Shown here piece by piece: positions 11,138-42,882 of a DNA stretch of 64,000 nt; positions within the stretch are counted from its first letter, which is position 1, and each line of letters begins with the position of its first letter. The position numbers and the translations under genes were made by a program. Origin of the DNA: a virus (Duplodnaviria; Caudoviricetes). The DNA lies in the IMG/VR virus record IMGVR_UViG_3300028833_000058. One strand, given 5' to 3'. The notes under the pieces were generated by a model, which searched no databases, was not told where the DNA came from, and worked only from the letters and a program-made list of their open reading frames with translations.

Positions 11138-11142
11138 TAAGC

Positions 11143-12728: not shown

Positions 12729-12745
12729 TGTCTTTCTCCTTTCAT

Positions 12746-13078: not shown

Positions 13079-13084
13079 CTCCTT

Positions 13085-13339
13085 TTAAAGTATCTCTTCT
13101 AACTTATAGAGTTTAACACCTTTTGCTTTCTTGATATATTCAACCGTGAACTCATATTTACTTACGCAGCCGTATGAATTTACTTGATGTGCTGCTATGA
13201 TTACATCTGTAGGTGCAAATTGGTCAAAACAATCTACATCATCTACTAATGCAGCATCGACATCATAAAACTCACCATTGATTCTAATACCAGTGATTTC
13301 GTTTTTATGGTCGATAATCTTTTGTATAATGTTTTGCAT
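13085..13339 (-). CDS. hypothetical protein
   Basis: Strong RBS. Confidence 0.75.
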   Translation of the reverse strand: MQNIIQKIIDHKNEITGIRINGEFYDVDAALVDDVDCFDQFAPTDVIIAAHQVNSYGCVSKYEFTVEYIKKAKGVKLYKLEEIL

Positions 13340-13360
13340 GTCCTTTCTCCTTTGGTAATG

Positions 13361-13702
13361 TTACTCTAATTGTTCACTTACCCATCTTCCATTGAACTCT
13401 ACTGCTTCTGGTTCCTCACCATCTTCACAATCTGGATAGAAGTTAACGTAAGCACATAATCTTACACCCGTTGTATCATCGAACATGATTGTTGTATGAA
13501 TATGTTGATAGTCAATATCAGCTACACCAGAATCTGTTTCAGAGATTACAAAATCATCAAGAACATTAAGGTCATCTTTTAGAGAAGTTAATTTATTTTT
13601 AAACTCTTCTAAATTAGTGACCTTAAACATTCCTACTCTTCTGAGTTCAAATGTCAGTTCGTTAAGTTCTTGTCTAGCTTCTGATTCGTACTGCATCATC
13701 AT
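13361..13702 (-). CDS. hypothetical acidic protein
   Basis: Strong RBS. Confidence 0.75.
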   Translation of the reverse strand: MMMQYESEARQELNELTFELRRVGMFKVTNLEEFKNKLTSLKDDLNVLDDFVISETDSGVADIDYQHIHTTIMFDDTTGVRLCAYVNFYPDCEDGEEPEAVEFNGRWVSEQLE

Positions 13703-13708
13703 TCTCCT

Positions 13709-14320
13709 TTATTCGAATCTATCGTCATCGTAGCCAGCATCTTCAACGAATCTTATATCTTCAAGTTCATATCCAGCAGGAGCTTTATCAGTTACTTCTA
13801 GTAAATCACCTGCCCACATACCAACTGCATAAGAATCAGGATATTCAGTTCCATAATCACCACCGCCACGGCCATTACCAATTGCAGTAAGTAATGATAA
13901 CGGGTGAACAATCCAACCGTTGTTATTACATTTACTCATATAGAGGTCAAAGTCAAGATAACATTTGTGAGTATGGTTGACTAAAAACTTATGTGCATAA
14001 TTAAATTTACCTTTCATCTTCAACGGGGGTAAATCAACTTCGCCTTTTGGATAAATCTTTTTATAATCTATCCAATGAACATTCTTGAAATCTCCTTGTT
14101 CATCTGCATAATCACCACACCAAACCAATCTACCTTTATGGTTATATAATTCTTTTGTCATAGCGTCCATAAACTTATTACCAATCCAAGAATGTTCCAT
14201 AAGCTTTAAGCCGTTATAATCTTTGTAGTTATTGTAATTGTTACGTGAAGTAGAATATTGAGCATCAAAACGTCTAATCTCACCATCTTGTTCTAATGCT
14301 TGTCTGTAATATTGTCCCAT
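13709..14320 (-). CDS. conserved phage hypothetical protein (MGQYY..GLKLMEHSW..GRGGGDY family)
   Basis: Recognisable motifs; start at 14320 after GAAAGGA. Confidence 0.8.
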   Translation of the reverse strand: MGQYYRQALEQDGEIRRFDAQYSTSRNNYNNYKDYNGLKLMEHSWIGNKFMDAMTKELYNHKGRLVWCGDYADEQGDFKNVHWIDYKKIYPKGEVDLPPLKMKGKFNYAHKFLVNHTHKCYLDFDLYMSKCNNNGWIVHPLSLLTAIGNGRGGGDYGTEYPDSYAVGMWAGDLLEVTDKAPAGYELEDIRFVEDAGYDDDRFE

Positions 14321-14362
14321 TGTCTTAATCCTTTCGTTTCTGTTGCTGTTGAATATGTTTAT

Positions 14363-14411
14363 AATATACAAAGATTTCTTAAGAAAGTAAAGTCAGAATT
14401 TTACAATTAAT
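14363..14411 (-). promoter_or_regulatory. early promoter cassette (ATTAATTGTAA box, TTTACT -35)
   Basis: Repeated motif with 17-nt spacer. Confidence 0.75.
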
Positions 14412-14424
14412 TCGTTAAAGGGTC

Positions 14425-14513
14425 AAAAAAGAAATGGTGCCCTAGATAAGTAGCACCAGAGCACCATTTACATTTCAACAGATTACGAATTCATAATAAT
14501 ATGGACGACAATG
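14425..14513 (-). ncRNA. 3' UTR/terminator element antisense to early leaders
   Basis: Contains reverse complements of ATTTCAACAGATT(G)ACGAA and ACGACAATG, then AAATGGTGC/GCACCATTT stem + U run. Confidence 0.5.
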
Positions 14514-14828
14514 TTAAACTTTCTTATTTGAAATCTTTTCTTTATTATCAATTAATTTTTTAAATATGTGTCGCATTAAATCATGGTTCAGTTCTTTGTC
14601 TGTGGCCCAGGACTTAATGTGAGCCTTAATATATTCCTTTTCTTCTACTGTTAAGTCTAAGTTTTCAATCTCCTTTTTCATCATTCCCTGTAGTTTCTCA
14701 GCGTTGGACGTAATGTCCTTCTCATTGATTGCGTCACCAGTCAGTTCAAATAACTCATCGAAGAATTGTTCCGTAACTTTATGATGACTGTTAATATATA
14801 TTTCTTTAAGTTCTTGTTCTGATTTCAT
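14514..14828 (-). CDS. hypothetical protein
   Basis: GAAAGGA RBS before ATG 14828. Confidence 0.7.
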   Translation of the reverse strand: MKSEQELKEIYINSHHKVTEQFFDELFELTGDAINEKDITSNAEKLQGMMKKEIENLDLTVEEKEYIKAHIKSWATDKELNHDLMRHIFKKLIDNKEKISNKKV

Positions 14829-14842
14829 ATCCTTTCCTTCTG

Positions 14843-14917
14843 TTATTTTCTCCATTTCCTGGAACCTCTCTTGATGAGATGGTTCGCTTTTCTTACACTA
14901 ATTAATCTAAATGACAT
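14843..14917 (-). CDS. 24-aa basic peptide MSFRLISVRKANHLIKRGSRKWRK
   Basis: GAAAGGAG RBS, first ORF after promoter cassette. Confidence 0.6.
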   Translation of the reverse strand: MSFRLISVRKANHLIKRGSRKWRK

Positions 14918-14944
14918 TTGTTTCTCCTTTCATATATGTTAAAG

Positions 14945-14991
14945 TTAATAATGTAGTCTCTTAAAAAAGTAAAGTCAAATTAGTACAATTA
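14945..14991 (-). promoter_or_regulatory. early promoter cassette (variant box)
   Basis: ATAATTGTAC..ACTTTACTT. Confidence 0.65.
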
Positions 14992-15588
14992 TCACAACTG
15001 TTCTGATTTAGGCTGCACAATTTCAATGTTATAATATTTCATCAGTGAAAGAAAAGAAGATACAAACGCTTCGTTATTTTCACCAGAGAAATATCTAGGG
15101 TCATAATTCATATATTCAACGAATCTTACAATCCTATCTACTTCAAACGATTTGTCATCAGCATCAGGATGTTCACTGTAATATTTACTTCCTTCTGATT
15201 CAGGGTCATTAAAAATAAATAACTTGCCAGATTCTATTTGGCCGTATCTATTCATTTTAATTTTTAGCAGCATACCACCGTTGTTGTTATCCTGAGTGTC
15301 ATTAATCCACTTCATAACCTTTTCAGGCGTTGCTTTACCTTCAAACGGTACCTCATATTCTTTTCCGTTTAATAGATACCCTTTACTCAATCTTTCAGGA
15401 AATTTAATTCCCTCATCGCAATCACAGAAATAAGTGTTAACAAACATCATTATATCAAGTAACTGCATCTTACCAATTCCCCATTGGTTGTGATATGAAC
15501 CAACGTAAGTCTTCTTGACATCTTTACCAGTGTCATAATCACGTTGTGGTTTAGTTACCTCTATCACTAATTGTGTTCTTTGTCCCAT
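14992..15588 (-). CDS. conserved phage hypothetical protein (MGQR..QWG..DNNNG)
   Basis: RBS and motifs. Confidence 0.78.
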   Translation of the reverse strand: MGQRTQLVIEVTKPQRDYDTGKDVKKTYVGSYHNQWGIGKMQLLDIMMFVNTYFCDCDEGIKFPERLSKGYLLNGKEYEVPFEGKATPEKVMKWINDTQDNNNGGMLLKIKMNRYGQIESGKLFIFNDPESEGSKYYSEHPDADDKSFEVDRIVRFVEYMNYDPRYFSGENNEAFVSSFLSLMKYYNIEIVQPKSEQL

Positions 15589-15590
15589 TG

Positions 15591-16043
15591 TTATTCTCCT
15601 TCAATTATTTTTGTGATATCTGTTTTAACTTTTTTAAGCACATTCACTTTATCTTCAAGCGTAGGTGCTTTGATTATCCAAGATGTTGAACCACTGAACA
15701 CTACGTTGCTATGGTTACTTGAAAGATGTAATACAAGATAATCAGGGTCATTGTGTAACCAAAAATGTAACTTCATACCTCTATCATCACATCTTAAACC
15801 AAGTTCGCTTTCGTGGATGTAAGATTTGTTCTTATCAAAGTAAGCATAAATCTTGCTAAGCTTACTTATGTTACCAGTTTTCAATAAATCAAAACTCATT
15901 GAGCGATGGCGTTTGCAATATGTTTCAAGTTCTTGTGTCTTGTTTTCTTTTTCTTTTTCTAAACTATAAAGCTTAAGTCTTGCTTTTGATTCTTCACGCT
16001 CATACTTTTCAAAACGTGTTAATGGCTTTTTACTCATTGTCAT
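15591..16043 (-). CDS. hypothetical protein
   Basis: RBS within conserved leader. Confidence 0.75.
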   Translation of the reverse strand: MTMSKKPLTRFEKYEREESKARLKLYSLEKEKENKTQELETYCKRHRSMSFDLLKTGNISKLSKIYAYFDKNKSYIHESELGLRCDDRGMKLHFWLHNDPDYLVLHLSSNHSNVVFSGSTSWIIKAPTLEDKVNVLKKVKTDITKIIEGE

Positions 16044-16069
16044 TCTCCTTTCGTCAATCTGTTGAAATT

Positions 16070-16118
16070 ATGATATCAAGAATCCCACTAAAAGTAAAGT
16101 GAGATTCTTACAATTAAT
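16070..16118 (-). promoter_or_regulatory. early promoter cassette
   Basis: ATTAATTGTAA-N9-TTTACT-N17-TATCAT. Confidence 0.8.
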
Positions 16119-16128
16119 TCCTAAGTCA

Positions 16129-16443
16129 TTAAAATGGAATAATAAAATGATTTGTAATTAATTCAATGAGGTCATCTCCAAAGTTGACATCAAACTCATC
16201 ACATTTGAACTCATCATCCATGAGAACACCACCGTCTGAATCTAAAGTACACTCATCAATTTTATTACCATTCAAATCTTTGACTTCAACATGATAAATG
16301 TCTTCCTCGTCATTATCTCTATAACAAAAGACATTGTACGTTATCATTGTTTTAGTGTCATAGATTCTAAATTGAACCTCCTCTAAAGTAACTGTTTCAC
16401 GTTCAATGCTACCACAAGCCATTATCTTTAATCTATCGGACAT
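16129..16443 (-). CDS. hypothetical acidic protein
   Basis: ORF in operon. Confidence 0.7.
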   Translation of the reverse strand: MSDRLKIMACGSIERETVTLEEVQFRIYDTKTMITYNVFCYRDNDEEDIYHVEVKDLNGNKIDECTLDSDGGVLMDDEFKCDEFDVNFGDDLIELITNHFIIPF

Positions 16444-16676
16444 TCTTCTTCTCCATTCAAATTGATTACATTACCTAATTGCTTTCCGTCTTTGTTATAT
16501 ACTTTTGATATACCACAAAACGTTAATGCAAAGTCCTCATTCCAAGTAGTACCGCAATCTGCACATTCGCAAGGATAGCTCATAACATCATCATTTAAGT
16601 CTGAGCTTCCATAATTGACCATACTTGAACCACATTTAGGACAAGTACATTCTTTAACTATCAATTTCTTTTTCAT
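16428..16676 (-). CDS. small zinc-ribbon protein
   Basis: CPKC..CADC. Confidence 0.7.
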   Translation of the reverse strand: MKKKLIVKECTCPKCGSSMVNYGSSDLNDDVMSYPCECADCGTTWNEDFALTFCGISKVYNKDGKQLGNVINLNGEEECPID

Positions 16677-16690
16677 TTCCTTTCTCCTTT

Positions 16691-16846
16691 CTAAAACGGA
16701 TTTTTATATACGATTTTAAAATCCGTTAGTTTAAAACCATTTTCTAAAATCCAATTATTAGCGGTTGTTCTTGCACTGTATCCTTTCGGGATTTTAAAAC
16801 CGCAAACTATTTCACCTGTTTTTATATTTTTAAGCCAAAACTTCAT
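16691..16846 (-). CDS. 51-aa hypothetical protein (MKFWLKNIKTGEIVCGF...)
   Basis: Fills gap; ATGA overlap with upstream gene. Confidence 0.6.
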   Translation of the reverse strand: MKFWLKNIKTGEIVCGFKIPKGYSARTTANNWILENGFKLTDFKIVYKNPF

Positions 16847-17340
16847 TTTTCTTTATCCTTTCTCATCTGTTGAATCTTTTTGGTTGTATCAGTTATAAAC
16901 CCGTAAGTTGAGTTCCAAAAGATTCCCTCTTTGCTAATTACAACGACACAAGCTCCAACAGACCGTAACTTTTCAGCTCCTGCTTCTGTTATTGCTACAA
17001 TCTCATCATCAAGTAACTGTTCTTGTAAATACTGCATAGATGATATAGTTCTGTATTTGGTTTCATCATCAAAGATAGATTCATCATCTACCTCATTGCA
17101 ATCTAAATCACAAACTTCATCAGCATAGTATTTTCTTACAGCAACTACTTTACCTGATTGTTTATCAATGATTACTTCATCATCATCATTAAGATTAGCG
17201 TCATAACTACCAATGAACACACTGTTATTTTCGGTATATACTTCATCATAACCTAATGCACCAAATACTCTTGCTACTTCATCTACATCTTTAACTTTAA
17301 TGTAGTCATTTGATGCCACTGAAAATACATAATTAGCCAT
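16843..17340 (-). CDS. hypothetical protein
   Basis: Strong RBS. Confidence 0.75.
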   Translation of the reverse strand: MANYVFSVASNDYIKVKDVDEVARVFGALGYDEVYTENNSVFIGSYDANLNDDDEVIIDKQSGKVVAVRKYYADEVCDLDCNEVDDESIFDDETKYRTISSMQYLQEQLLDDEIVAITEAGAEKLRSVGACVVVISKEGIFWNSTYGFITDTTKKIQQMRKDKEK

Positions 17341-17342
17341 TG

Positions 17343-17660
17343 TTATTCTCCTTTGTTTTCTTGTTCTTCTATTACGTCTTTAATCAAATCATCAAAGACA
17401 CAATCCATAGTATTATACAAATCACCGTAATCAGAAAAGTCTAATCTATCAATGACTTCTTGTGCGATATTATTTATCTCATCATCTGTCATCTTTATAT
17501 CATACTTATTATTACGTTCTATTATACGAATTTTTACATCATCAGTAGACCAAACCCATATCTGTTTATTGAGTTCATCTGCTAAATCGTGTAAAGTGAT
17601 ACCATAAGTATTCATAGCATCAATAATCTCTTTTAGTTTCTCGTTTTTAGTCATCTTCAA
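17343..17660 (-). CDS. hypothetical acidic protein
   Basis: ORF in operon. Confidence 0.7.
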   Translation of the reverse strand: MKMTKNEKLKEIIDAMNTYGITLHDLADELNKQIWVWSTDDVKIRIIERNNKYDIKMTDDEINNIAQEVIDRLDFSDYGDLYNTMDCVFDDLIKDVIEEQENKGE

Positions 17661-17871
17661 TCTCCTTTACTAAATCAACACCAAGGCTCAACGTGTGTCT
17701 TGCTCCGCAGTGTGGACATTTAAATTCAAAAGTTTTTGTAAATAAGTTTATGTACAAATCATCATTTATACGAAACACAAACTCTTGCTTACATCTTTGA
17801 CACTTTACAGTAATCTCAGATGTTACAAGTGCTAAAGCTCCATAGTTTATTTCTTCTGCTTTCTTACTCAC
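17647..17871 (-). CDS. small zinc-ribbon protein
   Basis: CQRC..CPHC. Confidence 0.7.
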   Translation of the reverse strand: MSKKAEEINYGALALVTSEITVKCQRCKQEFVFRINDDLYINLFTKTFEFKCPHCGARHTLSLGVDLVKEIEDD

Positions 17872-17882
17872 GATTAGTCCTC

Positions 17883-18575
17883 CTAAGATTCTTCACAATA
17901 GTCTTCGTAGTCATAACCCCAAACTTCACAAGCAAACTTTCTAGGGTTATCAATAGCTACTTCTTCAACTTCTCCATTTTCAAAGCGTAAGATACCACAG
18001 TTACTACCAATGTCTTCATCAGCGTAGGTTACTTCAATGACTTCGTTTGGTAACGCTTCAGAAAGTTTGATATACACAGGTGAAGGTATAGACCAAGCTG
18101 TTTGAAATTCTATAACATTACCATCAATGTTTGTACTAGAAGCATTCCATTTCGTTCCCCAATTCTCTAAAGCCCAGTTATACCAATTTATTGAACCATA
18201 ACGTTTTAAATTGAAGTAACCAGCTATGTAGGTACGAATATGTGAAATGTTTGTATTAGAAAAATTTTTCAACTTACAAATAGCTTTTACAACTAATTCG
18301 TTTTTCATAATTTTGTCAACGAATTTTACCTGTGTTGTTTTTTCATTATAACACTTTTCAAATTCTTTGATTATAACTAATTCACATACATCTTTTTCTG
18401 AATGTAATCCTTCGTATTCTATGTTTGAATAATCACAAAAACCAGCATCAATGTCAAGGTCTTTTGGTCTAGGTACAATTTTATTGAAATCTACATTACC
18501 TTCTTCATTTACAAGTAAATTCATCAATTCACTCATATTAGAGCAAGTTACTCTGTTTATAACCCAATTTGGCAT
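17883..18575 (-). CDS. DUF1281/YubB-like ferredoxin-fold protein
   Basis: MPNWV-N, DFNKIVP, WYNW..NWGTKWNA, F-TAWS-P, YADED-G-NCG. Confidence 0.8.
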   Translation of the reverse strand: MPNWVINRVTCSNMSELMNLLVNEEGNVDFNKIVPRPKDLDIDAGFCDYSNIEYEGLHSEKDVCELVIIKEFEKCYNEKTTQVKFVDKIMKNELVVKAICKLKNFSNTNISHIRTYIAGYFNLKRYGSINWYNWALENWGTKWNASSTNIDGNVIEFQTAWSIPSPVYIKLSEALPNEVIEVTYADEDIGSNCGILRFENGEVEEVAIDNPRKFACEVWGYDYEDYCEES

Positions 18576-18610
18576 TGCCGTTCTCCTTTCGTCAATCTGT
18601 TGATTTATAA

Positions 18611-18659
18611 ATTATAACTCACCTTACCATAGAAGTAAAGTGAGTTAATTACAATTAAT
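18611..18659 (-). promoter_or_regulatory. early promoter cassette
   Basis: ATTAATTGTAA-N9-TTTACT-N17-TATAAT. Confidence 0.8.
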
Positions 18660-18669
18660 TCTGTATAGG

Positions 18670-18858
18670 TTATACATTGCCATACATATAACTATGTTGT
18701 GCATTACCATCTAGCAGTAGCCGAACTTGTCTTCGTTCTTCTACTGTATTGACATTGTATTTATCACATATTTCACAAAATCTATTGTAGGTCAATCCCT
18801 TAATAGATTTGCAAATAGCTACTACAATGTCAATTTTATCCATTTCATGATTATCCAT
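18670..18858 (-). CDS. hypothetical protein
   Basis: GGAGG RBS. Confidence 0.65.
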   Translation of the reverse strand: MDNHEMDKIDIVVAICKSIKGLTYNRFCEICDKYNVNTVEERRQVRLLLDGNAQHSYMYGNV

Positions 18859-18867
18859 GTCTTCCTC

Positions 18868-19425
18868 CTATCTAAAATATTCTCTACTGTCAATGTAAAC
18901 ACTACCTTTTCCATTTGCACAATCTCTTAAAGAAGTTGCGTGAAAAGCAGAACGACTTAAACCAGATAAGAATTCGTGTGTCCCTAACATTCTTTTTGCT
19001 GTTCTTGCGCTAACCTTTTTCCCACGAGAAGTTTCAAAGGTAGTATGTTCAATCACTCTGTCTATTTGGTATATGTCTTTCGTGTCATATCCCCATTCTT
19101 TTAACAGAGAAATATCACTATTCTTTAGATTTTTAATAGTGTCTTTTTGAGTTTCATCATAAGGTTTTATTTCACCTTCCCAAATCATAAAGGTATTCGC
19201 ACAAGGTACAACTGGCTTATCAAATCCTTCTAATTTGAAAACGTCAGCTTCTCCATCGTGAATTTTATAAAACTTATCGTAATCATAAGTTCCTTTATAT
19301 TTATTAAAAGTGTTATCTAAATACACATCTGTTCTTGTGTAGTTTATCGCAGCTCCTTTGATGGTATCTGCAAATTGTCCAAGAACTGTGAATTTGTGTC
19401 CTCTATATTTAAACGTCTTACGCAT
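18868..19425 (-). CDS. hypothetical protein
   Basis: GAGGAGAACGACAATG start. Confidence 0.75.
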   Translation of the reverse strand: MRKTFKYRGHKFTVLGQFADTIKGAAINYTRTDVYLDNTFNKYKGTYDYDKFYKIHDGEADVFKLEGFDKPVVPCANTFMIWEGEIKPYDETQKDTIKNLKNSDISLLKEWGYDTKDIYQIDRVIEHTTFETSRGKKVSARTAKRMLGTHEFLSGLSRSAFHATSLRDCANGKGSVYIDSREYFR

Positions 19426-19675
19426 TGTCGTTCTCCTCTAAAAAAACGCAGTCCATAACTTTATCCATAGCCTGCTCTTTTGTTTCTGTCTTGAAAGAAA
19501 TGTAAACACTATTAGAAGGTTTACCAAAAGCATAAAACCACTTTTCTTTCTCTTCATCAACTGCTGTGTAATATGGAAAGGATTCAACCCAAGCTACAAT
19601 CTTGTTACCAGATTTTAGTAGATATTGCTCTGCACCGTAGTCTGTAACTCTTTTAACCCATTTAAGATTAGCCAT
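19418..19675 (-). CDS. hypothetical protein
   Basis: CAACAGGAG leader/RBS. Confidence 0.75.
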   Translation of the reverse strand: MANLKWVKRVTDYGAEQYLLKSGNKIVAWVESFPYYTAVDEEKEKWFYAFGKPSNSVYISFKTETKEQAMDKVMDCVFLEENDNA

Positions 19676-19704
19676 AGTTTTACTCCTGTTGAAATGTTAC
19701 AAAT

Positions 19705-19753
19705 GTTATATCATATTTTATCTTTAAGGTAAAGTCAGATTCTTACAATTAAT
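19705..19753 (-). promoter_or_regulatory. early promoter cassette
   Basis: ATTAATTGTAA-N9-TTTACC-N17-TATAAC. Confidence 0.78.
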
Positions 19754-19967
19754 TCTTACTCCTTTCTACTTCATCTAAATAAATATCTTCATCACAAGGG
19801 ATAAGGATTAGTATGTTATCTACTTTACTAAAGGATACAATATTATCTAAAGTTCCATATCCATTTCGTTCACTATCTCTAGACATTACAACGGCCATAT
19901 CGCCATATAGCTTTTTAACCTTTTGTAATTTCTTGATAACTTGTGAAATTGTCATAGTCTGTTTCAT
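19749..19967 (-). CDS. hypothetical protein
   Basis: Strong RBS. Confidence 0.7.
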   Translation of the reverse strand: MKQTMTISQVIKKLQKVKKLYGDMAVVMSRDSERNGYGTLDNIVSFSKVDNILILIPCDEDIYLDEVERSKN

Positions 19968-19979
19968 AGTGTATCTCCT

Positions 19980-20429
19980 TTATAGAGTTAGTAAATCTAA
20001 TCTATCTTCTGCTAATACCAATAACCATGAATAATCATCGTCTGATATAATCTTTTGAGCAGTTTTATGTTTCCTGATATATTCTAGTAGTTCAGAATAA
20101 CTATCAAATTGTTTTTTACCAAGTTGTTCTGTTATGTCTTTGAATATTAAATCAAATATAACAACATCCATAACATCCATAATATCACATTTAACATTAT
20201 TGTTAAACTCAGGTTGAACAAGTATAGTTCTTATTGTTCCATCACAGTTATCTCTGATTATAAAACAATGCTGCCCTTCTTGTTCTTTTAACTCTTCATC
20301 CAAGTAAAGTTCTTTCCAAGTAGATGAAAAGTTTTCAACAATCTCATCATAAGGTGGCACTGTTGTTTCTTCTACCGAATAGTTTGCTGCATTAATTAAA
20401 TCGTTAATGCTAACTTTTACTTCTTTCAT
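19980..20429 (-). CDS. hypothetical protein
   Basis: CAACAGGAGG leader/RBS. Confidence 0.75.
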   Translation of the reverse strand: MKEVKVSINDLINAANYSVEETTVPPYDEIVENFSSTWKELYLDEELKEQEGQHCFIIRDNCDGTIRTILVQPEFNNNVKCDIMDVMDVVIFDLIFKDITEQLGKKQFDSYSELLEYIRKHKTAQKIISDDDYSWLLVLAEDRLDLLTL

Positions 20430-27444: not shown

Positions 27445-28854
27445 TTAGTCATCATCCTCATAATCAAAGCGGTCAGCCTTGATAAGTTTCGGTGGTATGA
27501 AATTCTTGTTGTTCAACACTAACCATACACATTTACAATAGTCAAAACGTGTTGTTGTGTCGTTATGCAATCTATCTTCAAAGTCACTGAATACTATAAG
27601 CGTATCAGGTCTTTCACTTCCATAATGTTTCTTTACCCATTCAAAGTTAGATGAAATGTCAGTTCCACCATAACTATTGAGCTTAAAGTCACCAATGATA
27701 TTTCTACTCCTTTCAGTGTAGGTGACTAATGTATCTTCGTGGACTTGAGTTGAGAAACACCAAGCGTCTATCTTGAATTGCTTAAACTGTGAAGCAATAG
27801 ATAACAAGTGATTCATAAAGCAGTTTAATTGTTTATCTGATATAGAGCCAGACGTATCAATAGCAACCGCAACCTTCAATATTTTTCTCTTGTCAGGACT
27901 TGGTAATATAAGACCTCTATATACACCAGACCTAGCAGGTTTCTTCCAAGTGAAGTCAGCTTTAGCAAAGGACTTGATATACTTTCTTAAAGCCTGTCGC
28001 CAATTAAATCTTACAGGTTTCAATACAAAGTTCTTTAATCTCTCTAAAGCAGTTGAGTTAGATGAATAGCCAGATTCACTTAAAGCAGTTTCTATTTGTG
28101 CTTTTAAGTCACTCATTTCCATTTCATTCAACTCAACTGGCATATGCTTATCAAGTTCAATTTGTCCTTTACCTTTTCCATTACCATCTCCATCTTCAGG
28201 CTTACCTTTACCGTTAGCCTTACCTTTACCATCACCTCCTTTAGATTTCTCTTTTGAATCGGAGTCAGTTTTGGAATTTTCGCCGTTACTTCCTTTGTCC
28301 AACATATCTTTCAAGGACTCTACAAGTTGTTGCATTTCGTCTATATTATCTTTAGACTGTTCAAGTAACTCTTTGTAGATTTCTTCAGCTGTCTTATTGA
28401 TATACTTGTCATCATACAATACCCATTCAGGTTTCCTACCAATAGGACTTGAAGTTCCATTGTTTTTATTGTTATACAGCAGACTATTGATTTCATAGTC
28501 AGTTGCTATATTCCAAAGTTCGTTTAGACATTGACCTTTAATAGAAGTATCTTTGAAGTCTATACCAAGTGCTTTACCTCTATCCCAAGTTAAGCCAAGG
28601 ATATGACTTAACTCGTGGGCAATAATAAAAGTCATTTGCTTTTTATCAATAGGGGTTTTAGCATATTGTTTGTTCTGCTCTTCAACACCAAACTCATTTA
28701 TGAAGATACATTTACCATCTGTCCAAGCACAATATGGCAAACTTGTATCATTAACCACCTTGTAACCAATTCTAGCTACAAGGTGGGCATATACTGGACA
28801 ATTAAACATCATATCAATTATGCTATTGTCCACCAATTCTCGTACATTAGACAT
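27445..28854 (-). CDS. HExxH metallopeptidase-like + VWA-like protein (DUF2201-type), copy 2
   Basis: AHELSH, WNIATDYEIN, G/K-rich linker, IDTSGS, GGTD. Confidence 0.85.
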   Translation of the reverse strand: MSNVRELVDNSIIDMMFNCPVYAHLVARIGYKVVNDTSLPYCAWTDGKCIFINEFGVEEQNKQYAKTPIDKKQMTFIIAHELSHILGLTWDRGKALGIDFKDTSIKGQCLNELWNIATDYEINSLLYNNKNNGTSSPIGRKPEWVLYDDKYINKTAEEIYKELLEQSKDNIDEMQQLVESLKDMLDKGSNGENSKTDSDSKEKSKGGDGKGKANGKGKPEDGDGNGKGKGQIELDKHMPVELNEMEMSDLKAQIETALSESGYSSNSTALERLKNFVLKPVRFNWRQALRKYIKSFAKADFTWKKPARSGVYRGLILPSPDKRKILKVAVAIDTSGSISDKQLNCFMNHLLSIASQFKQFKIDAWCFSTQVHEDTLVTYTERSRNIIGDFKLNSYGGTDISSNFEWVKKHYGSERPDTLIVFSDFEDRLHNDTTTRFDYCKCVWLVLNNKNFIPPKLIKADRFDYEDDD

Positions 28855-32030: not shown

Positions 32031-32933
32031 TTAATCTTCGTGGCTTGCTAATTTCAAAAGATAATCAGCCGCTTTTTGTGCCATACTACAAGCTGTTATT
32101 ATTGATTTTGGTTTGTCTTGTAAAGTCTTTATCCAACTTTCAATATATTTTAAATTGTTTTGGCTAAACATATAAGTATGACCAAATTCTTGAGCTATAA
32201 AACCTGCACCAATATCAGCTACAAGCTCTTCAAAGGCATAGCTCTCACTTCCAAACCTACCACTTAAATCTCTGTTGAGTCTTGATTTAGCACCAGACCA
32301 ATGCACCGTTTCGTGGCAAGCTGTCGGTATATATTCTTCAAGCATATCCTTGTTATATTGAGATAAGCTAGGAAGTTCAATAACATCTCTGCTCGGTATG
32401 TAGCAAGCGTGTCCGTGTCCTTCCGAATATACTGCACCTATTCTGTCAAGATAATTGTCTTTAAACAATCCAATCTTGTGCAAGATATTTTCGTCAATAG
32501 GCTCTTTGGTTTCTTCTTCAGGTTTATAATCCTGTAACTGGCACTCATTAAATACCGTATAATATCTCATAAACGGTATCATTTTTTCAATGTCATCACC
32601 ATTTTCATCTTTTTCATCAGTCTTAACCTTAACCTGTTTCCAAAAGATGATGTTTGTGCCTTTTTCACCCTTTTTAACAAACCGTTTAGCTTTCTTCCAT
32701 TGGTCAAAAGTTCCCCATTTGTTAGAGGTATATCCTTTTTCTTCACTAACGAAAGCAAGCAATACCATATTGAATCCTCTGTATAACTTCTTGCTTTCAA
32801 AATTAACACTTAAAGTATTAGAAGAAAAGAACGGTTTTACCCAGTGTCCTTTTCCTTTAACTTCTTCAAGCATAGCGATAAATTTATCAGCTGTGCTCTT
32901 AACAATTTGTTCTGTAACGTTTACCATTGTCAT
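32031..32933 (-). CDS. ardC: ArdC-family antirestriction protein (ssDNA-binding + zincin-like)
   Basis: YRGFN, WGTFDQW..VKKGEKG, YTVFNECQ, HETVHWSG..RLNR, YAFEELVA, YIESW. Confidence 0.9.
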   Translation of the reverse strand: MTMVNVTEQIVKSTADKFIAMLEEVKGKGHWVKPFFSSNTLSVNFESKKLYRGFNMVLLAFVSEEKGYTSNKWGTFDQWKKAKRFVKKGEKGTNIIFWKQVKVKTDEKDENGDDIEKMIPFMRYYTVFNECQLQDYKPEEETKEPIDENILHKIGLFKDNYLDRIGAVYSEGHGHACYIPSRDVIELPSLSQYNKDMLEEYIPTACHETVHWSGAKSRLNRDLSGRFGSESYAFEELVADIGAGFIAQEFGHTYMFSQNNLKYIESWIKTLQDKPKSIITACSMAQKAADYLLKLASHED

Positions 32934-35059: not shown

Positions 35060-35109
35060 GTGGTTTGTAATATTATGCCCTAATGTATTTGAAAGGACTT
35101 ATAGTAAAT

Positions 35110-35385
35110 ATGACAGAAAAAGAATTAACGCTTGAAGAGCTTGAAGCTAAGTTTAACAGAGCGATGGAACTTCATGATGCAGAAATATATTACAATGGTT
35201 CTATTATGGCATTAGAATCATTGAGAAGAACTTTTATTGAATCTAAAGATAAAAGTATTACGGTTAAAGAATTAGTAGAAGAACTTATACCTGGTTTTAT
35301 TAAAGTTGTAATTGAGGAACATGAAGCTTTAGTAAAAGAAATAGAGGGTAAAAGTTATGTAAAAGATAAAGCTACTCTTAATTAA
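35110..35385 (+). CDS. paralogue family B member 1
   Basis: YYNGSIMALESLRRTF..LIPGFI..EEHE. Confidence 0.75.
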   Translation: MTEKELTLEELEAKFNRAMELHDAEIYYNGSIMALESLRRTFIESKDKSITVKELVEELIPGFIKVVIEEHEALVKEIEGKSYVKDKATLN

Positions 35386-35392
35386 AATTATA

Positions 35393-35713
35393 TTGGAAGA
35401 AAGGACTACGGTGAATATTATGACTAAAGAAGATTTAAATGAAGATACACCTACAGAAAAAGAAGTGAAAGAATTAAAAGAATTAACGACAATTATATTT
35501 TATGATGGATATACCAGAGGATTAGAAGATTTTGCTAAAGCGTTAAATATGGCAGCAGCAAGAATTGGAAAGAATAATTTACCCGTAGACTTAATTGTTA
35601 ATGAACTTATACCAGCTCATGTTAAATGTGTATGTAAGAAACGTGATGAAATATTAAAAGAAGTTGATAATGAAGGACAATGTTTAACAGTAAATAACGT
35701 TATTCTTAATTAA
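35393..35713 (+). CDS. paralogue family B member 2
   Basis: FYDGYTRGLE..NELIP..KRDEIL; start uncertain. Confidence 0.7.
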   Translation: MEERTTVNIMTKEDLNEDTPTEKEVKELKELTTIIFYDGYTRGLEDFAKALNMAAARIGKNNLPVDLIVNELIPAHVKCVCKKRDEILKEVDNEGQCLTVNNVILN

Positions 35714-35741
35714 TTTTGTATTTGGAGAAAGGGTTTGCGCT

Positions 35742-35987
35742 ATGAGTGATAAATATAACATAGAACTTCATGATACAGAAAAGTATTATGAAGGTTATAT
35801 TGATGCATTGGAGTACATAAGAAAAGGGTTTATTTATGACCAAAATGGGATTGGAATAAAAAATTTGAGCGTCAATAAATTAGTTAAAAGGACTATGCCT
35901 AGAGAAATTGAATGGGCAAAAAAAGAACGTGATAAAGCTATTGAAGAAATCAAGAAGAAATATGCTACATATATAATGTGTAATTAA
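35742..35987 (+). CDS. paralogue family B member 3
   Basis: YYEGYIDALEYIRKGF..MP..ERDKA. Confidence 0.72.
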   Translation: MSDKYNIELHDTEKYYEGYIDALEYIRKGFIYDQNGIGIKNLSVNKLVKRTMPREIEWAKKERDKAIEEIKKKYATYIMCN

Positions 35988-36010
35988 GTTACGGAAAGGA
36001 TTTAACTACA

Positions 36011-36319
36011 ATGGAAGAAAAGAAGAAAGTTACTAAAGAAGATATACTTGAATTAGTTGGTGATTTACAAAAGAATGTCATGAAGAATGATATTGTTAAT
36101 TACCATAATGGTTCTATTCATGCATTAGAATCTTTAAGACATATGTTCATAGAAGGTGATTATGGAAAATATATTGCACGTGAAGAATTAATCAATGAGA
36201 TTATTCCTAATTGTATCCAAATAGTCATAGAAGAACGTGATAATTTGTTAGCACGTGTTAATGAAGACGAAAATGTTGAAGATATCGCTAAACCTGAAAA
36301 ACCAATATTGTACAATTGA
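36011..36319 (+). CDS. paralogue family B member 4
   Basis: YHNGSIHALESLRHMF..IIP..EERDNLL. Confidence 0.75.
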   Translation: MEEKKKVTKEDILELVGDLQKNVMKNDIVNYHNGSIHALESLRHMFIEGDYGKYIAREELINEIIPNCIQIVIEERDNLLARVNEDENVEDIAKPEKPILYN

Positions 36320-36344: not shown

Positions 36345-36623
36345 ATGGATAAAGATGAGATAGTTTTTACTTTAGATTGGTACGGAATATTCTTAACAAG
36401 GGCCAATGGGATTCTTATGAAGTATCTTCCGTGGTTTGCCGATTCATATAGAGTCATCAGCTTGAATCTGTCATCAAGAAGTGATACACAGGTCATCTGT
36501 ATATGTGAAAAGATAAACTTTGATACAGATAGAATGGATACAATATGTGTGGCTATACCATATAAGTATCTTCTTAGTGATAAAATATCTTATGTACGTA
36601 AGAAAGATTTAACAGTTTTGTAA
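36345..36623 (+). CDS. hypothetical protein
   Basis: Likely start MDKDEIV. Confidence 0.55.
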   Translation: MDKDEIVFTLDWYGIFLTRANGILMKYLPWFADSYRVISLNLSSRSDTQVICICEKINFDTDRMDTICVAIPYKYLLSDKISYVRKKDLTVL

Positions 36624-36851
36624 GTCTTCGATGTTTATCGTGTACATCTCTTCTACATAATCATTGCAAGGGGGTATACAGAAATCTACCTTGACAGTAA
36701 TTTGACCACCACCAGCGTTAGCAATACTACCAATGAACATTGGACAGTTTCTATAGTAACTACTTTTCACTTTTTCTCTTATTACTTTTTCTATGGATTC
36801 GTAAATCTTAGTTCTTAACGTAAAATAAGTGTAAACGTCTTCTTTATTCAT
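36609..36851 (-). CDS. hypothetical protein
   Basis: End of minus-strand operon. Confidence 0.6.
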   Translation of the reverse strand: MNKEDVYTYFTLRTKIYESIEKVIREKVKSSYYRNCPMFIGSIANAGGGQITVKVDFCIPPCNDYVEEMYTINIEDLQNC

Positions 36852-37266
36852 GAATTTTCTTTCCCTCTATAGTGAATTCTTGGTTATTATTTAATGTTAT
36901 CAATACTTCATACGTTTTGTCAATCAAATCTTTTGGTATCCGTTTGTCATTCTTTTTACTCTTATAGGCTCCCAATTGTAAAGACAACAGAAAAATTCTA
37001 TCGTCAGTTATGTTTAGGTGCATAGGCACTAAAGTCTCATTTGTTATTCGTGGTAAACTTTCGTGAAATGAAAATGTTGTTAAGCATTGAAACATTTTTG
37101 TATATACGAATAGACATATATTCATGCTGTCGTCATGTATAGAAATGTGAAAATGTTCATTGGCAAAAATTATTTCTAGAGTATATCCATCTTTTGTGGA
37201 TATACATTCAAAACCAGCTTCGTTTCCGTGTTCACGAATAGTATCAAATTTAAATGGATTGTTCAT
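36844..37266 (-). CDS. paralogue family C member 1
   Basis: NITDDRIFLLSLQLGAYKSK..IP..YEVL..NNQEF. Confidence 0.75.
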   Translation of the reverse strand: MNNPFKFDTIREHGNEAGFECISTKDGYTLEIIFANEHFHISIHDDSMNICLFVYTKMFQCLTTFSFHESLPRITNETLVPMHLNITDDRIFLLSLQLGAYKSKKNDKRIPKDLIDKTYEVLITLNNNQEFTIEGKKIHE

Positions 37267-37699
37267 TGAACCTAACTACCGATTCTTCATTTGAGATAAC
37301 CTCAAATTCTTGATTATTAGACATCATTATTAATAACTCATAAGCTTTATTAATCATGCGATTTGGAATACGTTTGTTAGTTATGTTACTTTTATAAGCT
37401 CCTAACTTAATACTCTCTGTTAATATTTCGTCATTTGTGATGTTTGGACAAGACGACTTGAAGTTATTGTATGTATACAAATTGTTTTTGAACTCATAAG
37501 AAAAAATTGTGAAATGATTTTCTCTTATAAAAAGACATTTGTTTATACTTTCATTTTTACTGTTTAGTTTATTATTAAGCGATAGCTTGTAATCACCATC
37601 TATATCGTAAAAGAATAAAGACGAGTAGTTATTTGTGTCATATATCCTACACGATTTGTCAAATGTAATTGTCTTTACCATTGAAATAAACCCAGGCAT
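37250..37699 (-). CDS. paralogue family C member 2
   Basis: NITNDEILTESIKLGAYKS..IP..YELL..NNQEF. Confidence 0.75.
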   Translation of the reverse strand: MPGFISMVKTITFDKSCRIYDTNNYSSLFFYDIDGDYKLSLNNKLNSKNESINKCLFIRENHFTIFSYEFKNNLYTYNNFKSSCPNITNDEILTESIKLGAYKSNITNKRIPNRMINKAYELLIMMSNNQEFEVISNEESVVRFNEQSI

Positions 37700-38114
37700 T
37701 GTTGTTTAAACTTACTTTAAATGGTTGTTCGTTATAAATACAGTTTAATAATTCATAAGACTGATTTATAATTTTTTCTGGAATAGCTTTACCATCTGTT
37801 TTTCTCTTATAAGCTCCAAGATACACAGATAATATAAAAATGTCATCGTTGTTTATGTTTTTATCTATAACCTTATTTGTTTTATTTAACTCTGGACTTG
37901 TCATTAAATGATTATGTCGTAAACTATAATAAAATAAAGTTGAATTCGATGAGTTTATATCTATCATACTTATAGTAAGATTTGTTTCATCATGTTGAGC
38001 GTTAAAACATATAGCGTATCCTTCTTCAACTGTTGTAAAATAGAACGATACGCTATACTGTCTAACACTTGTTCTACTAATATCATCAAATTCAAAACTT
38101 TTATAATCAATCAT
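37659..38114 (-). CDS. paralogue family C member 3
   Basis: NINNDDIFILSVYLGAYKRK..IP..YELL..NEQPF. Confidence 0.75.
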   Translation of the reverse strand: MIDYKSFEFDDISRTSVRQYSVSFYFTTVEEGYAICFNAQHDETNLTISMIDINSSNSTLFYYSLRHNHLMTSPELNKTNKVIDKNINNDDIFILSVYLGAYKRKTDGKAIPEKIINQSYELLNCIYNEQPFKVSLNNNAWVYFNGKDNYI

Positions 38115-38799
38115 TGAATTTTATCAACTCTTTATAAGGTGCTGATATCTTAGATAACTCTTCACGCATCTGGGTTAAATCCTGAAAGTCGTTTCTGTCA
38201 TCCATTGTGTATCTAACGTAATAAGCGATGACTAATTGTCTGGCTGTCAATTTACCATGACCTTGTTTTTTGGCCAATAAAAGAATCTTTTTAATTTTAT
38301 CTTGAGTAGTTAACTCTTTGTTTAACTTGATTAGATTATCCAACATGTAATCATCTTTTTTCAAACAAGCTATAGAAAAATCTCGTTCTTTCTCACTTGC
38401 TTCAAATTGACCATTCAACGCTGCTCTTTGCTCTTCGTCACGTAAGTATTTTTTAACTCTATTTATGATTACCTTAGTGAAATTCTTATTCCATTGCTCA
38501 CTGTCAGTGTTTCTTAACATATTAAGATTTGAAAAAGAAGAAGTTACATAATCTTTGACACGTTCTTTTGGGATGTACCAATATTTTTTATTATGAGCAC
38601 TTGTTCTTTCCATGACTTGTGGAAACTGTACTTTCACGCTGTCTTTCATACGTACAGCAGTTCTTTTGGATACAGCGAATCTTTTCATGATGTCCTCTAT
38701 GGTAACACCTTTTTCAGAATCCTGCATCCATAGAACTAAATCGAGTAAAACTCTAGTCTTTTTATAGAAGATATCATTCAATTGTGTATCTGCTTTCAT
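38107..38799 (-). CDS. DriD/WYL-regulator-type N-terminal wHTH fused to a family D domain (no WYL domain)
   Basis: LLDLVLWMQDSEKGVTIEDIMKRFAVSKRTAVRMKDSV..FPQ..KYWYIP. Confidence 0.72.
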   Translation of the reverse strand: MKADTQLNDIFYKKTRVLLDLVLWMQDSEKGVTIEDIMKRFAVSKRTAVRMKDSVKVQFPQVMERTSAHNKKYWYIPKERVKDYVTSSFSNLNMLRNTDSEQWNKNFTKVIINRVKKYLRDEEQRAALNGQFEASEKERDFSIACLKKDDYMLDNLIKLNKELTTQDKIKKILLLAKKQGHGKLTARQLVIAYYVRYTMDDRNDFQDLTQMREELSKISAPYKELIKFND

Positions 38800-39124
38800 C
38801 GAATGGAACTTTCTTTAAAATGTTTTCTCTGTATTCTGGATGAGTTTTCTTATACTGTTCCTCATCTTTTACCATTTTATTTAACTTTGCTTGAATTTGA
38901 TTTACAGTTTTTCTATCTTTTCCTCTTTGGTTATACATTCTATCGTAAGCAACAACAACTTCTTCTAAAGTAAGTGAATGTATACCCCTATCTTTAGCGA
39001 TATCAAACAAGTGATAAATTCTGTCACCAAATACATCTTTTCTGATTATTTCAAGTCCAAGTTTACGTTTTACATCTTGGGTTAAATCACTTGAATCAAA
39101 GATTGACTCGTCATAATTTTTCAT
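38774..39124 (-). CDS. family D putative winged-helix protein
   Basis: RIYHLFDIAK..SLTLEEVVVAY. Confidence 0.7.
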   Translation of the reverse strand: MKNYDESIFDSSDLTQDVKRKLGLEIIRKDVFGDRIYHLFDIAKDRGIHSLTLEEVVVAYDRMYNQRGKDRKTVNQIQAKLNKMVKDEEQYKKTHPEYRENILKKVPFDESRYTIE

Positions 39125-39143: not shown

Positions 39144-39821
39144 TTAGTATTCTAACAATGTAAATGTACCAACAGCACCTTTTACTCTTACGATACATTT
39201 GTTTTTAGCACTTTTTATTTTATTTGTTTCTAAGTAATATATCTTGTTTGCAATTTGATGTTTCGTCTTTTGGCCATCTCTACCAAAAGAAGTATAAACT
39301 TTGTAATAAGCTGCTGTAACTTGGTCTATTGTTAAGGATTTCATGTTGAACATCTCAGCAAGGTCAAACAAATTAAAAATCTTGCTTGTAAAATCATCTT
39401 CTACTTCTCTTTTCAATCCAGCTCTGATTTTTATATCAACATCAGAAATGTTTGTCATATCGAATAGATTGTCAGGTGCATCAAAATGTTTATCAAGTTT
39501 AATTTCTACTTTCTTGTTTTCTTCAACTAATGTATTGAACATTTCTTTTTTAGACTGTACTTTTTTATTAACAATCTCTTTTACTTCACTCTTTGAGATG
39601 ACATTAGTTTTAGATTTATCATTTATGACCTTGTTTTCATCCTTGCGTGGTTCAATGGATTTAACTTTCTTTGGTTCTGGAATAATATCTCTAGCAAGTG
39701 CATCTGGAAAAACAGCAATTTCGTCTCTTTTCCTTCTGAAAAAAGGAAATGAATCAAAACATCCTTCTATCCTGTTTAGCAAACCACTTTCATCTTTCGT
39801 TTTCGACATAGTTTTTGGCAT
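39144..39821 (-). CDS. family D putative winged-helix protein with long N-terminus
   Basis: KIFNLFDLAE..SLTIDQVTAAYY. Confidence 0.7.
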   Translation of the reverse strand: MPKTMSKTKDESGLLNRIEGCFDSFPFFRRKRDEIAVFPDALARDIIPEPKKVKSIEPRKDENKVINDKSKTNVISKSEVKEIVNKKVQSKKEMFNTLVEENKKVEIKLDKHFDAPDNLFDMTNISDVDIKIRAGLKREVEDDFTSKIFNLFDLAEMFNMKSLTIDQVTAAYYKVYTSFGRDGQKTKHQIANKIYYLETNKIKSAKNKCIVRVKGAVGTFTLLEY

Positions 39822-39900
39822 TATTGATTTCCTTTCATATAAAAATTAGAATTTCTGACAAAAACTATAACATTAAAAATGAAAAAGTAAAGTTATTTTT

Positions 39901-40927: not shown

Positions 40928-41434
40928 CTACTTTTCCAATATCTCAAAGAACAATCTACCATCTGTTAATTGACTGTGAACAAACCAAGATGTATTAAAC
41001 CAGCAACTTCCTTTACTATTAAAATCACATCTTTTATCCAAAGCAATTAGACCAATACCATTTTTAAACAACTTGTGTCTCTTGGTTCCCTCAAGTGCAG
41101 TCATAGGAAGTAATAAGGCAAATGGTTTTTTCAATTCATAACACCTTTTTATAATATCGTCCTTCAAGCTGTAGGGCGGGTTCGTAACAATCATGTCATA
41201 TCCTTCTGGTTCGCATTTGAAGAAATCTTTACCTTCGTCTTTATGACTGTAAATAATGTCGTAACCAAAAGAAAGTAGTTCTTGAACAATGTTACTTTCT
41301 AATGTATCACAAGGACACCATACAGTTTTGACGTTATTTGGAATGTAATTTAAAAGTGGTTTGATAGCATAAGCTGGTGTATAGAGCTCATCGAACGCTC
41401 CTCTTTTAATGTAATCAAGCATTGCCTTTTTCAT
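40928..41434 (-). CDS. phage DNA amino-methyltransferase (NPPY)
   Basis: DELYTP, VWCPCD, GKDFF, IVTNPPYS, FALLLP. Confidence 0.8.
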   Translation of the reverse strand: MKKAMLDYIKRGAFDELYTPAYAIKPLLNYIPNNVKTVWCPCDTLESNIVQELLSFGYDIIYSHKDEGKDFFKCEPEGYDMIVTNPPYSLKDDIIKRCYELKKPFALLLPMTALEGTKRHKLFKNGIGLIALDKRCDFNSKGSCWFNTSWFVHSQLTDGRLFFEILEK

Positions 41435-42161
41435 TTATCCTATCCTCCGCTATATTAAAATAAGTTTCATTAAGTTCAATACCAATAAAATCTCTATTTA
41501 ATTTTTTACAAGCAACACCAGTAGTTCCGCTCCCCATTGTGAAATCAAGCACTATGTCTCCTTCATCGGTATAGGTCTTTACCAAATATTCCATTAGTTC
41601 CAATGGTTTCTGTGTTGGATGTAAATTACTTGTTAGAATATCTCTTTTAAATTGAATAACTTGTAGTGGATAACGTAAACCGTTATCTTTATATTGGTTC
41701 GGTTGCTTATTTCCAGAATCCACTAATAAACCTAATTTACCATTTTTAATTTTATTGGTTCTCAATGGTCCATCATGTTTAATCATCTGTGGATTATAGG
41801 TTGGTTGTTTGTCATAGAACACACAAATGTTTTCAATGACTTTTGCTGGTCTTTTCTTTAACTGAAATATATTTGTAGCTCTTTCTTTCTGCCAATACCA
41901 GTCATATTTATAGGCAGTCAAATTACTTTCTCTTAGAGCAGATGAAAACGGTTCGTTGCCAAAAAGACATACAACAGCGTCATCTTTTTTAATTCTGTTT
42001 ATGCAATCCCACATTGGTACAAACGGTATAGCTTTATCCCATGAACATCTTGTAATTTCGTAAGGTATATCTGTGATAACGGCATCGACTTTAATCCCAT
42101 CTCCAATGAGAGTATTCATCACTTCTATACAATCACCATTGTAAAGCTGAATATTACTCAT
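41415..42161 (-). CDS. site-specific DNA methyltransferase (N6/N4, beta class)
   Basis: LYNGDC, ITDIPY, HPTQKP, VLDFTMGSGTTG, FIGIE. Confidence 0.9.
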   Translation of the reverse strand: MSNIQLYNGDCIEVMNTLIGDGIKVDAVITDIPYEITRCSWDKAIPFVPMWDCINRIKKDDAVVCLFGNEPFSSALRESNLTAYKYDWYWQKERATNIFQLKKRPAKVIENICVFYDKQPTYNPQMIKHDGPLRTNKIKNGKLGLLVDSGNKQPNQYKDNGLRYPLQVIQFKRDILTSNLHPTQKPLELMEYLVKTYTDEGDIVLDFTMGSGTTGVACKKLNRDFIGIELNETYFNIAEDRINEKGNA

Positions 42162-42882
42162 TTTCTATCCTTTCTTTTGCGATATCAAAATAAGTTTTAT
42201 TAGCTTCGATACCTATAAAATTACGATTTAATCTTTTAGCAGCAACCCCTGTACTACCAGAACCCATACAAAAATCTAACACTGTATCACCTTCGTTTGT
42301 AATCATTTCGATACATCTTTCCATAAGAGCAACTGGTTTTTGAGTTGGGTGATTAACTTTTTCTTTACTGTTATGAGGTAACGCAGGTATATCAGACCAT
42401 ACATCAGACAACGTAATTCCATCTTTTAAGTAACCTGTTGTATATTCTGGTCTTTTACTATCAACTTTAATCTTAATGTTGTTAAATGTATAATTCTTTT
42501 TATCTTTAGTGTAATAACAAATCGGTTCATAACCAGATGCCAATGCTTTACCTCTTGTGTTGTTAAAAGCTCTTTTTCTTGACCAGATTATAATTCGTTT
42601 TTCGTAAAACGTTTTATCTAGCTCATAACAGATTTGACGATTATATTGTCGTCCTGTAAAAATTAACAAAGAACCATCTTCTTTAAGTAAATTATAACAA
42701 TAGTTAAAACAACTGTTACACCAACCAAGGTAATCAGATAAATCTCTCCATTGATTATCCCAGTCATTTTTAACAACTTGAAAATAAGGTATGTCTGTGA
42801 TAACAGCGTCAACTTTTACATGGGTATTCATGTCTTTTAAAATTTGATAACAGTCGACATTATAAAGTTTTATATCACTCAC
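42154..42882 (-). CDS. site-specific DNA methyltransferase (N6/N4, beta class)
   Basis: ITDIPY, SDVW, HPTQKP, VLDFCMGSGSTG. Confidence 0.9.
   Translation of the reverse strand: MSDIKLYNVDCYQILKDMNTHVKVDAVITDIPYFQVVKNDWDNQWRDLSDYLGWCNSCFNYCYNLLKEDGSLLIFTGRQYNRQICYELDKTFYEKRIIIWSRKRAFNNTRGKALASGYEPICYYTKDKKNYTFNNIKIKVDSKRPEYTTGYLKDGITLSDVWSDIPALPHNSKEKVNHPTQKPVALMERCIEMITNEGDTVLDFCMGSGSTGVAAKRLNRNFIGIEANKTYFDIAKERIENE

Follow-up and report, generated by a model that had tools for sequence, protein, structure and literature searches.

Can a phage retain the DNA-reading part of a host regulator while discarding the parts with which that regulator senses its signal and activates transcription, and what might it gain by doing so? 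The question is raised by a 230-aa protein (P0001), encoded as an intact ORF at 38107-38799 (-) of the window, i.e., the whole stretch of 64,000 nucleotides that was analysed, in which a winged helix-turn-helix (wHTH) head is joined to a C-terminal domain of a different kind. WYL regulators such as DriD, CapW and BrxR are emerging as ssDNA-sensing switches of DNA-damage and anti-phage responses. If the reading set out below is true, a phage-borne head of this type would represent a form of counter-defence directed at how immunity is controlled transcriptionally and not at the immune proteins themselves.

The source phage

The window lies within a 148-kb phage record of IMG/VR, estimated to be 62% complete, and has a GC content of ~0.31; among its products are a DnaB-like helicase, a Dda-like helicase and a major head protein. 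An identical 230-aa protein is also encoded on a contig of 246,429 bp, and the ORF is intact both there and in several samples. The source is thus a large phage. Megablast and tblastn against 50,697 GenBank phages gave no match, PHROGs and NCBIfam returned nothing meaningful for P0001 or its neighbours, and a back-translated scan of IMG/VR did not find relatives of P0001. The first 26 nt of the gene are shared with the end of the upstream gene; both the N-terminus of the protein and this overlap (~26–29 nt) are kept in related phages.

Elsewhere in the window, the genes at 27445-28854 (-) and 499-1806 (-) code for a pair of paralogues of ~435–469 aa, both belonging to phrog_1314 (annotated as HNH endonuclease).

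The head as a DriD-type winged helix-turn-helix

Sequence and fold matches both place a DriD-type wHTH at residues 12–83 (38551-38766 (-)), with a recognition helix that includes K45, R46, T47, V49, R50 and K52 and a wing that includes K71 and K72. It is followed at residues 84–98 (38506-38550 (-)) by what the hit ranges and the alignment identify as the remains of the DriD linker, along with the beginning of the first helix in DriD's three-helix bundle. The only significant sequence matches among solved chains of the PDB (phmmer) are to Caulobacter DriD, namely 8tp8 and 9pfq (E 1e-4, residues 12–77), and the WYL model of PADLOC is matched via its N-terminal positions 5–78 of 229 only (E 4.5e-5). 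The Pfam model HTH_11 (PF08279) remains sub-threshold (18.5 vs 25 bits, E 0.0019), which says little, since the DriD homologue of the probable host, discussed below, likewise falls under that threshold (20.2 bits). When 1.84 billion representatives were searched exhaustively with phmmer, 186 matches were recovered at E<=1e-3, nearly all of them on residues ~12–98. The full-length proteins among these (E 1e-17 to 1e-8) carry the Pfam WYL and WCX domains: for example, both are present in P0013, P0022 and P0037 (315–323 aa), with WYL only in the 249-aa fragment P0009, and all four align without gaps with P0001 over the recognition helix and wing. The scores of these relatives against PF13280 (WYL) range from 32 to 51 bits.

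The structural comparison leads to the same family. An AlphaFold model built from a 62-sequence alignment has a pLDDT of 82–94 over residues 21–80, and the single-sequence model is poor except at the wHTH. In a search of 48,161 chains, the top fold match is DriD 8tp8_A (Z 11.4, rmsd 1.7 Å over 69 residues, 33% identity), with the runner-up at Z 9.0 and BrxR at Z 7.9; DriD chains also come first in the Foldseek ranking. Residues ~12–98 are a true homologue of the wHTH of DriD-type HTH-WYL-WCX regulators and, as judged from the modelled fold (Z 11.4 for DriD vs 7.9 for BrxR), the head is to be placed in the DriD family and not with BrxR/CapW. The proposal of an earlier note on this DNA, that the N-terminus is a DriD-like wHTH, is therefore borne out; that note had also named unrelated HTH proteins as best hits as the outcome that would count against it, and the best solved matches, by sequence as well as by fold, are DriD.

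Loss of the DriD modules and the family D domain

Homology to the regulators stops at about residue 98, within the would-be first helix of the three-helix bundle, nearly all phmmer matches having ceased to align by residue ~98–110. The bundle itself is absent, with residues 99–160 finding homologues in the closest phages only. This segment (38320-38505 (-)) is predicted with low confidence as a helical spacer (pLDDT <50), and the 160-aa orthologues P0004 and P0012 do without it. Neither WYL (PF13280) nor WCX (PF25583), the latter present in the relatives, gives a Pfam match in P0001 even at E<=1, and only helices are predicted in the C-terminal half; the loss of the WYL sensor, likewise claimed from the sequence at the outset, is thereby confirmed. 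Since the three-helix bundle, WYL and WCX were each tested for and found absent, P0001 is a derivative of the DriD head and not a WYL regulator.

A degenerate WYL domain was also considered for the C-terminal half and rejected, given the lack of any HMM signal and the all-helical prediction.

What follows the spacer is a helical domain at residues 161–230 (38110-38319 (-)), termed family D, of ~70 aa with a conserved core LT-x2-Q-x3-AYY-x2-YT that emerges from alignments and the HMM. Two neighbouring genes code for the same domain: a 116-aa protein (38774-39124 (-)) consists of it alone, and a 225-aa protein (39144-39821 (-)) has an uncharacterised N-terminal half followed by it. These two match each other strongly (2e-12). 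Direct pairwise comparison of P0001 with the 116-aa and 225-aa proteins is weak (E 1e-3 and 0.05), and the link is made via phage orthologues, which connect it to them with BLASTP E-values of 7e-8 and 1e-6, so that the family D C-terminus asserted in the earlier note stands as common to all three proteins. Scanning the genome with the family D HMM yielded no copy beyond these three. Elsewhere the domain occurs either fused to the same head (orthologues of 160–192 aa) or alone (97–116 aa), and among 5.8 billion proteins searched with a profile there were 12 members, of which all whose genomic context was retrieved lie on phage contigs. Family D may thus be regarded as a small new protein domain, common to three proteins of one cassette.

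Its model consists of a helix, a short strand and two further helices, predicted with moderate confidence (pLDDT 66–84). Fold searches with the whole model were dominated by the wHTH and are uninformative on the C-domain; the ESM-Atlas model of this stretch shows moderate similarity to solved domains (TM 0.5–0.63), among them the winged-helix families WHD_Cdc6, ScpB and TP6A_N (TM 0.53–0.62), and on these modelled structures family D is probably winged-helix-like.

The conserved cassette

The gene lies in a cassette whose order is the same in phages on contigs of 237–251 kb from ruminant gut samples: DNA methylases are followed by a C-domain protein of 185–225 aa, a second C-domain protein of 107–116 aa, the protein combining the head with the C-domain, one to three copies of a 140–158 aa family and, lastly, an 80-aa protein. 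In the window, the methylases are represented by three adjacent DNA methyltransferases (one EcoRI/Eco57I-like and two N6_N4_Mtase) at 40928-42882 (-). The 140–158 aa family is represented by three tandem paralogues (151, 149 and 140 aa) at 36844-38114 (-), directly downstream of P0001; a C-terminal LGAYK...KRIP motif is common to all three, related phages keep the family in the same place behind the head gene, and Pfam, PHROGs and PADLOC give no match. The 80-aa protein (36609-36851 (-)) is 49–58% identical in the related phages. Before the three genes for C-domain proteins lies a promoter-like site (TTTACT-16-TATAGT with an upstream TG; 39864-39891 (-)), which is a consensus match only, such sites being no commoner in the cassette region than in shuffled sequence.

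A gene combining ArdC-N and MPTase-PolyVal domains is found at 32031-32933 (-). In related phages, too, an ArdC-like gene lies a few kb past the cassette, and one relative has a faint Tad2-like match. Flanked as it is by methyltransferases and an ArdC-like gene, the neighbourhood of the cassette looks like an anti-restriction region.

Converging on the cassette from the opposite strand are four small tandem ORFs (100, 106, 81 and 102 aa; 35083-36319 (+)), which look like paralogues of each other with a common Y-x-G-x-I-x-ALE motif.

Cellular relatives and the probable host clade

With each prokaryotic species represented by one genome, a scan uncovered 24 loci with a head 49–62% identical to that of the phage protein, 21 of them at 53–57% over residues 9/10–98. 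All but two of these loci lie in uncultured Alphaproteobacteria-type MAGs from rumen or gut (19 labelled Alphaproteobacteria, Rhodospirillales or Rhodospirillaceae, and three labelled 'uncultured bacterium' only), with the other two in a Gastranaerophilaceae bin. All 24 code for orthologues of one protein of 315–316 aa, mutually 64–99% identical and furnished with both WYL and WCX, which matches DriD along its entire length (E 1.4e-51, residues 2–307). A quick maximum-likelihood tree was made of 125 heads; in it, the five phage sequences belong to a clade that contains ten of the ten MAG regulators placed and stands apart from 91 other WYL-regulator heads at 94–95% SH-aLRT; resolution within the clade of phage and MAG sequences is poor.

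Two further phage genes point in the same direction. An OmpA-family gene and a DUF3768 gene (4002-4418 (-) and 12746-13078 (-)) show 66–84% (~70%) nucleotide identity to genes of the same bacterial order and, among the matches listed, have counterparts in most of its 283 genomes from the rumen alphaproteobacterial order, which suggests that they are host-derived and offers a clue to the host. The MAG genomes of this order are of 1.2–2.0 Mb, and the GC of the loci examined is ~0.34–0.40. No spacer matching positions 1–20000 of the window was seen in the 283 genomes among the best 150 of 488 matches listed. From the homology of the head and the identity of the OmpA and DUF3768 genes, the probable host clade is that of the uncultured rumen/gut Alphaproteobacteria, and the head would appear to have been captured from the lineage of this probable host. 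The locus thereby provides an uncultured rumen phage of 246 kb with a probable host clade.

The two loci from the Gastranaerophilaceae (Melainabacteria) MAG, L027 and L030, are short contigs whose DriD-like regulator is 78–79% identical to that of the alphaproteobacterial locus L018; either contamination of the bin or horizontal transfer would account for them.

Base-reading residues and the host box

Caulobacter DriD reads the box CGxC-N7-GxCG with Arg37 contacting G2, Arg41 the G paired with C4, and Glu40 C1 (PMC10853764). In the phmmer alignment, the equivalents of Arg37, Arg41 and Glu40 are R46, R50 and V49 in P0001 and R, R and I in the MAG regulators; thus, both guanine-reading arginines are kept in the phage protein, and the replacement of Glu40 by V49 parallels the Ile of the host, both being hydrophobic. 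The recognition helix and wing of P0001, P0002, P0004 and P0223–P0225 are almost identical to those of the host regulator. In two orthologue groups the base-reading residues are altered, to RRTATS in P0003 and EHTAVK in P0012, from which it follows that specificity varies across the phage group.

The promoters of the host regulators furnish a candidate target. When upstream regions were taken from 21 of the MAG loci, 19 of the 21 displayed TGYCA-N5-TGACA (xG2xC4-N7-G12xC14x), whose geometry, G2/C4-N7-G12/C14, is that of the DriD box. The copy lies 70–75 nt ahead of the ATG of the regulator in 17 loci, and at -185 and -85 in L008 and L029, respectively, its position being constant even among unrelated flanks; in the remaining two loci the box is further upstream, ahead of a T5orf172 gene that precedes driD. 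The change of C to T at box position 1 would fit the change of Glu to Ile/Val in the protein. In most loci the 3' half-site occupies the would-be -35, 16 nt before a conserved TAAAT element, and the two may well constitute a -35/-10 promoter arranged as in DriD, judging by the sequences. The DriD box is known to overlap the -35 and to keep a constant spacing to the -10 (PMC13004042).

The box is not confined to the promoter of the regulator. Several loci have additional strong boxes near it, one of which precedes a GmrSD type IV restriction gene (L009:616-2460 (-)) and another a T5orf172 gene (L012:5382-5984 (+)), and L024 has a cluster of boxes around its regulator gene, at 3851, 5309, 5928 and 8145. 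One MAG has a DrmD-like SNF2 helicase gene on either side of the regulator, with an adjoining DNA methylase. Away from the neighbourhood of the regulator, strict boxes number 0–4 per genome in five host genomes, and the genes next to them are uninformative.

No obvious ORF follows several of the extra host boxes, from which small RNAs or short genes might be expressed.

The phage genome offers nothing comparable in the part that was scanned. A PWM was built from 16 distinct sites, the real ones scoring 19–28 bits; on the 148-kb phage record (~60% of the genome) its best match reached 12.1 bits, and random genomes had equal or greater numbers of such matches. The loose pattern TGYC-N7-GRCA occurs zero times in these 148 kb vs 2–5 times in random genomes (mean ~3), a depletion that is marginal. 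De novo analysis of the same record found no enriched GC-containing palindromes, and no boxes were found in the related phage loci or, for the host-type box, upstream of the phage's own cassette.

Possible roles of the phage protein

Among the parts that have been lost is the one through which DriD activates transcription: its three-helix bundle contacts the alpha-CTD and the beta subunit of RNA polymerase, which brings about activation (PMC13004042). The same bundle autoinhibits the DNA-binding domain of DriD in the apo state. Further, DriD dimerises mainly via WCX, and the conformation of the linker matters for specific binding. As the host-like reading residues have been kept and the three-helix bundle and WYL lost, the phage protein would be expected to bind boxes independently of the signal and without activating. 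Hence, the reading adopted here, albeit tentatively and at a little short of an even chance, is that P0001 serves as a constitutive competitor on host DriD operators that is unable to activate transcription. The head, comprising the wHTH and the first linker residues joined to a domain found only in this phage group, would bind the host boxes TGYC-N7-GACA overlapping the -35 with or without ssDNA and, being unable to recruit the polymerase, would competitively silence DriD-dependent promoters. This competition might then damp the ssDNA-triggered induction of driD and of its box-preceded neighbours, defence genes included. Dimerisation would proceed through the C-domain, the only candidate for this role, possibly together with the two C-domain partners encoded alongside. 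The ssDNA made by phage replication is the DriD signal, and blocking the response to it plausibly helps the phage. Whether such squatting on the DriD boxes goes as far as to prevent infection-triggered induction, including that of restriction and defence genes such as GmrSD, is a slightly more tentative matter, and may be seen as a real possibility that falls somewhat further below even chances.

Weighed against this is the less likely, if still quite conceivable, interpretation that P0001 is an ordinary phage regulator without a host target, with its wHTH placed on phage operators for middle/late timing or autoregulation of the cassette. Small HTH regulators are common in phages, the scan for operators covered 148 kb with ~40% of the 246-kb genome (~98 kb) lying outside it, the altered residues of two orthologue groups are what one would expect were specificity to drift with phage operators, and the presence of the C-domain in two neighbours hints at a phage-internal complex. 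Against it stand the lack of any host-type box or enriched GC-containing palindrome in the 148 kb and the near-identity of helix and wing to those of the host in P0001, P0002, P0004 and P0223–P0225.

Distinctly unlikely is that the head tethers the C-domain, along with its partners or some other factor, to the host boxes and so rewires DriD genes useful to the phage, e.g., in repair and replication. The Caulobacter DriD regulon includes recA, recJ and dnaG, and the C-domain is common to a conserved set of three genes. Its ESM-Atlas matches, moreover, are winged-helix modules, and those such as ScpB's and Cdc6's often mediate protein contacts. What speaks against such a hijack is that P0001 has no known activation surface and its C-domain no known partner, whereas activation of the DriD type requires the three-helix bundle. 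At the far end lies the very improbable alternative that the gene is a functionless, decaying remnant of a captured regulator: a recombination accident could indeed truncate a multidomain regulator, but orthologues with an overall identity of only 34–43% (P0003, P0004 and P0012) retain the two-domain build, the overlap with the upstream gene and the residues in contact with DNA, and the ORF has remained intact on the 246-kb contig and across samples. Conservation of the cassette across phages all but rules out a decaying fragment.

Relation to known systems

The competitor reading may be set against the systems closest to it. With Caulobacter DriD, P0001 has in common the fold and sequence of the wHTH (Z 11.4; 33–36% identity), the equivalents of Arg37 and Arg41, the phosphate-contact positions, the FPQ motif and, in its probable target, the geometry of the box. 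It differs from DriD in being phage-encoded, in its lack of the three-helix bundle, the WYL ssDNA sensor and WCX, in the substitution of Val for Glu40, and in its unrelated C-terminal domain. The host homologues of DriD (e.g., L018:6004-6951), at 53–57% identity over residues 9–98, are closer still, with 8 of 9 residues identical in the recognition helix and 8 of 10 in the wing; unlike P0001, they are encoded on the chromosome, contain WYL and WCX within their 315–316 aa, and are preceded by boxes in the promoters of their own genes. Against this background, the locus provides a candidate for a natural 'sensor-deleted' allele of the head of the host regulator, together with a predicted operator and a predicted regulon context of GmrSD, T5orf172 and SNF2 helicases.

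BrxR and CapW, the wHTH-WYL-WCX repressors of defence systems, have a head of the same broad superfamily as P0001, and the host regulator sits, as they do, among defence genes; they differ from DriD in their helix/beta-hairpin connector and their symmetric binding of DNA. In the literature searched on WYL or DriD in connection with phages or anti-defence, no phage-encoded, sensor-less head of the WYL family was reported, and no phage countermeasure against these switches was found. The closest functional precedent found is TgrL of phage phiCbK, an XRE protein paralogous to host factors; early in infection it represses promoters of the host (PMC10688885). The likeness lies in the fact that an alphaproteobacterial phage carries its own copy of a host transcription factor. 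TgrL, however, is a whole XRE protein that can heteromerise with host factors, whereas P0001 has kept the DNA-binding head only, with the sensing and activating parts replaced.

Heads of the same kind occur in two further proteins, P0007 (258 aa) and P0011 (231 aa), with T1RH-like_C and Fic C-termini, respectively; these may be other natural domain swaps or chimeras of assembly.
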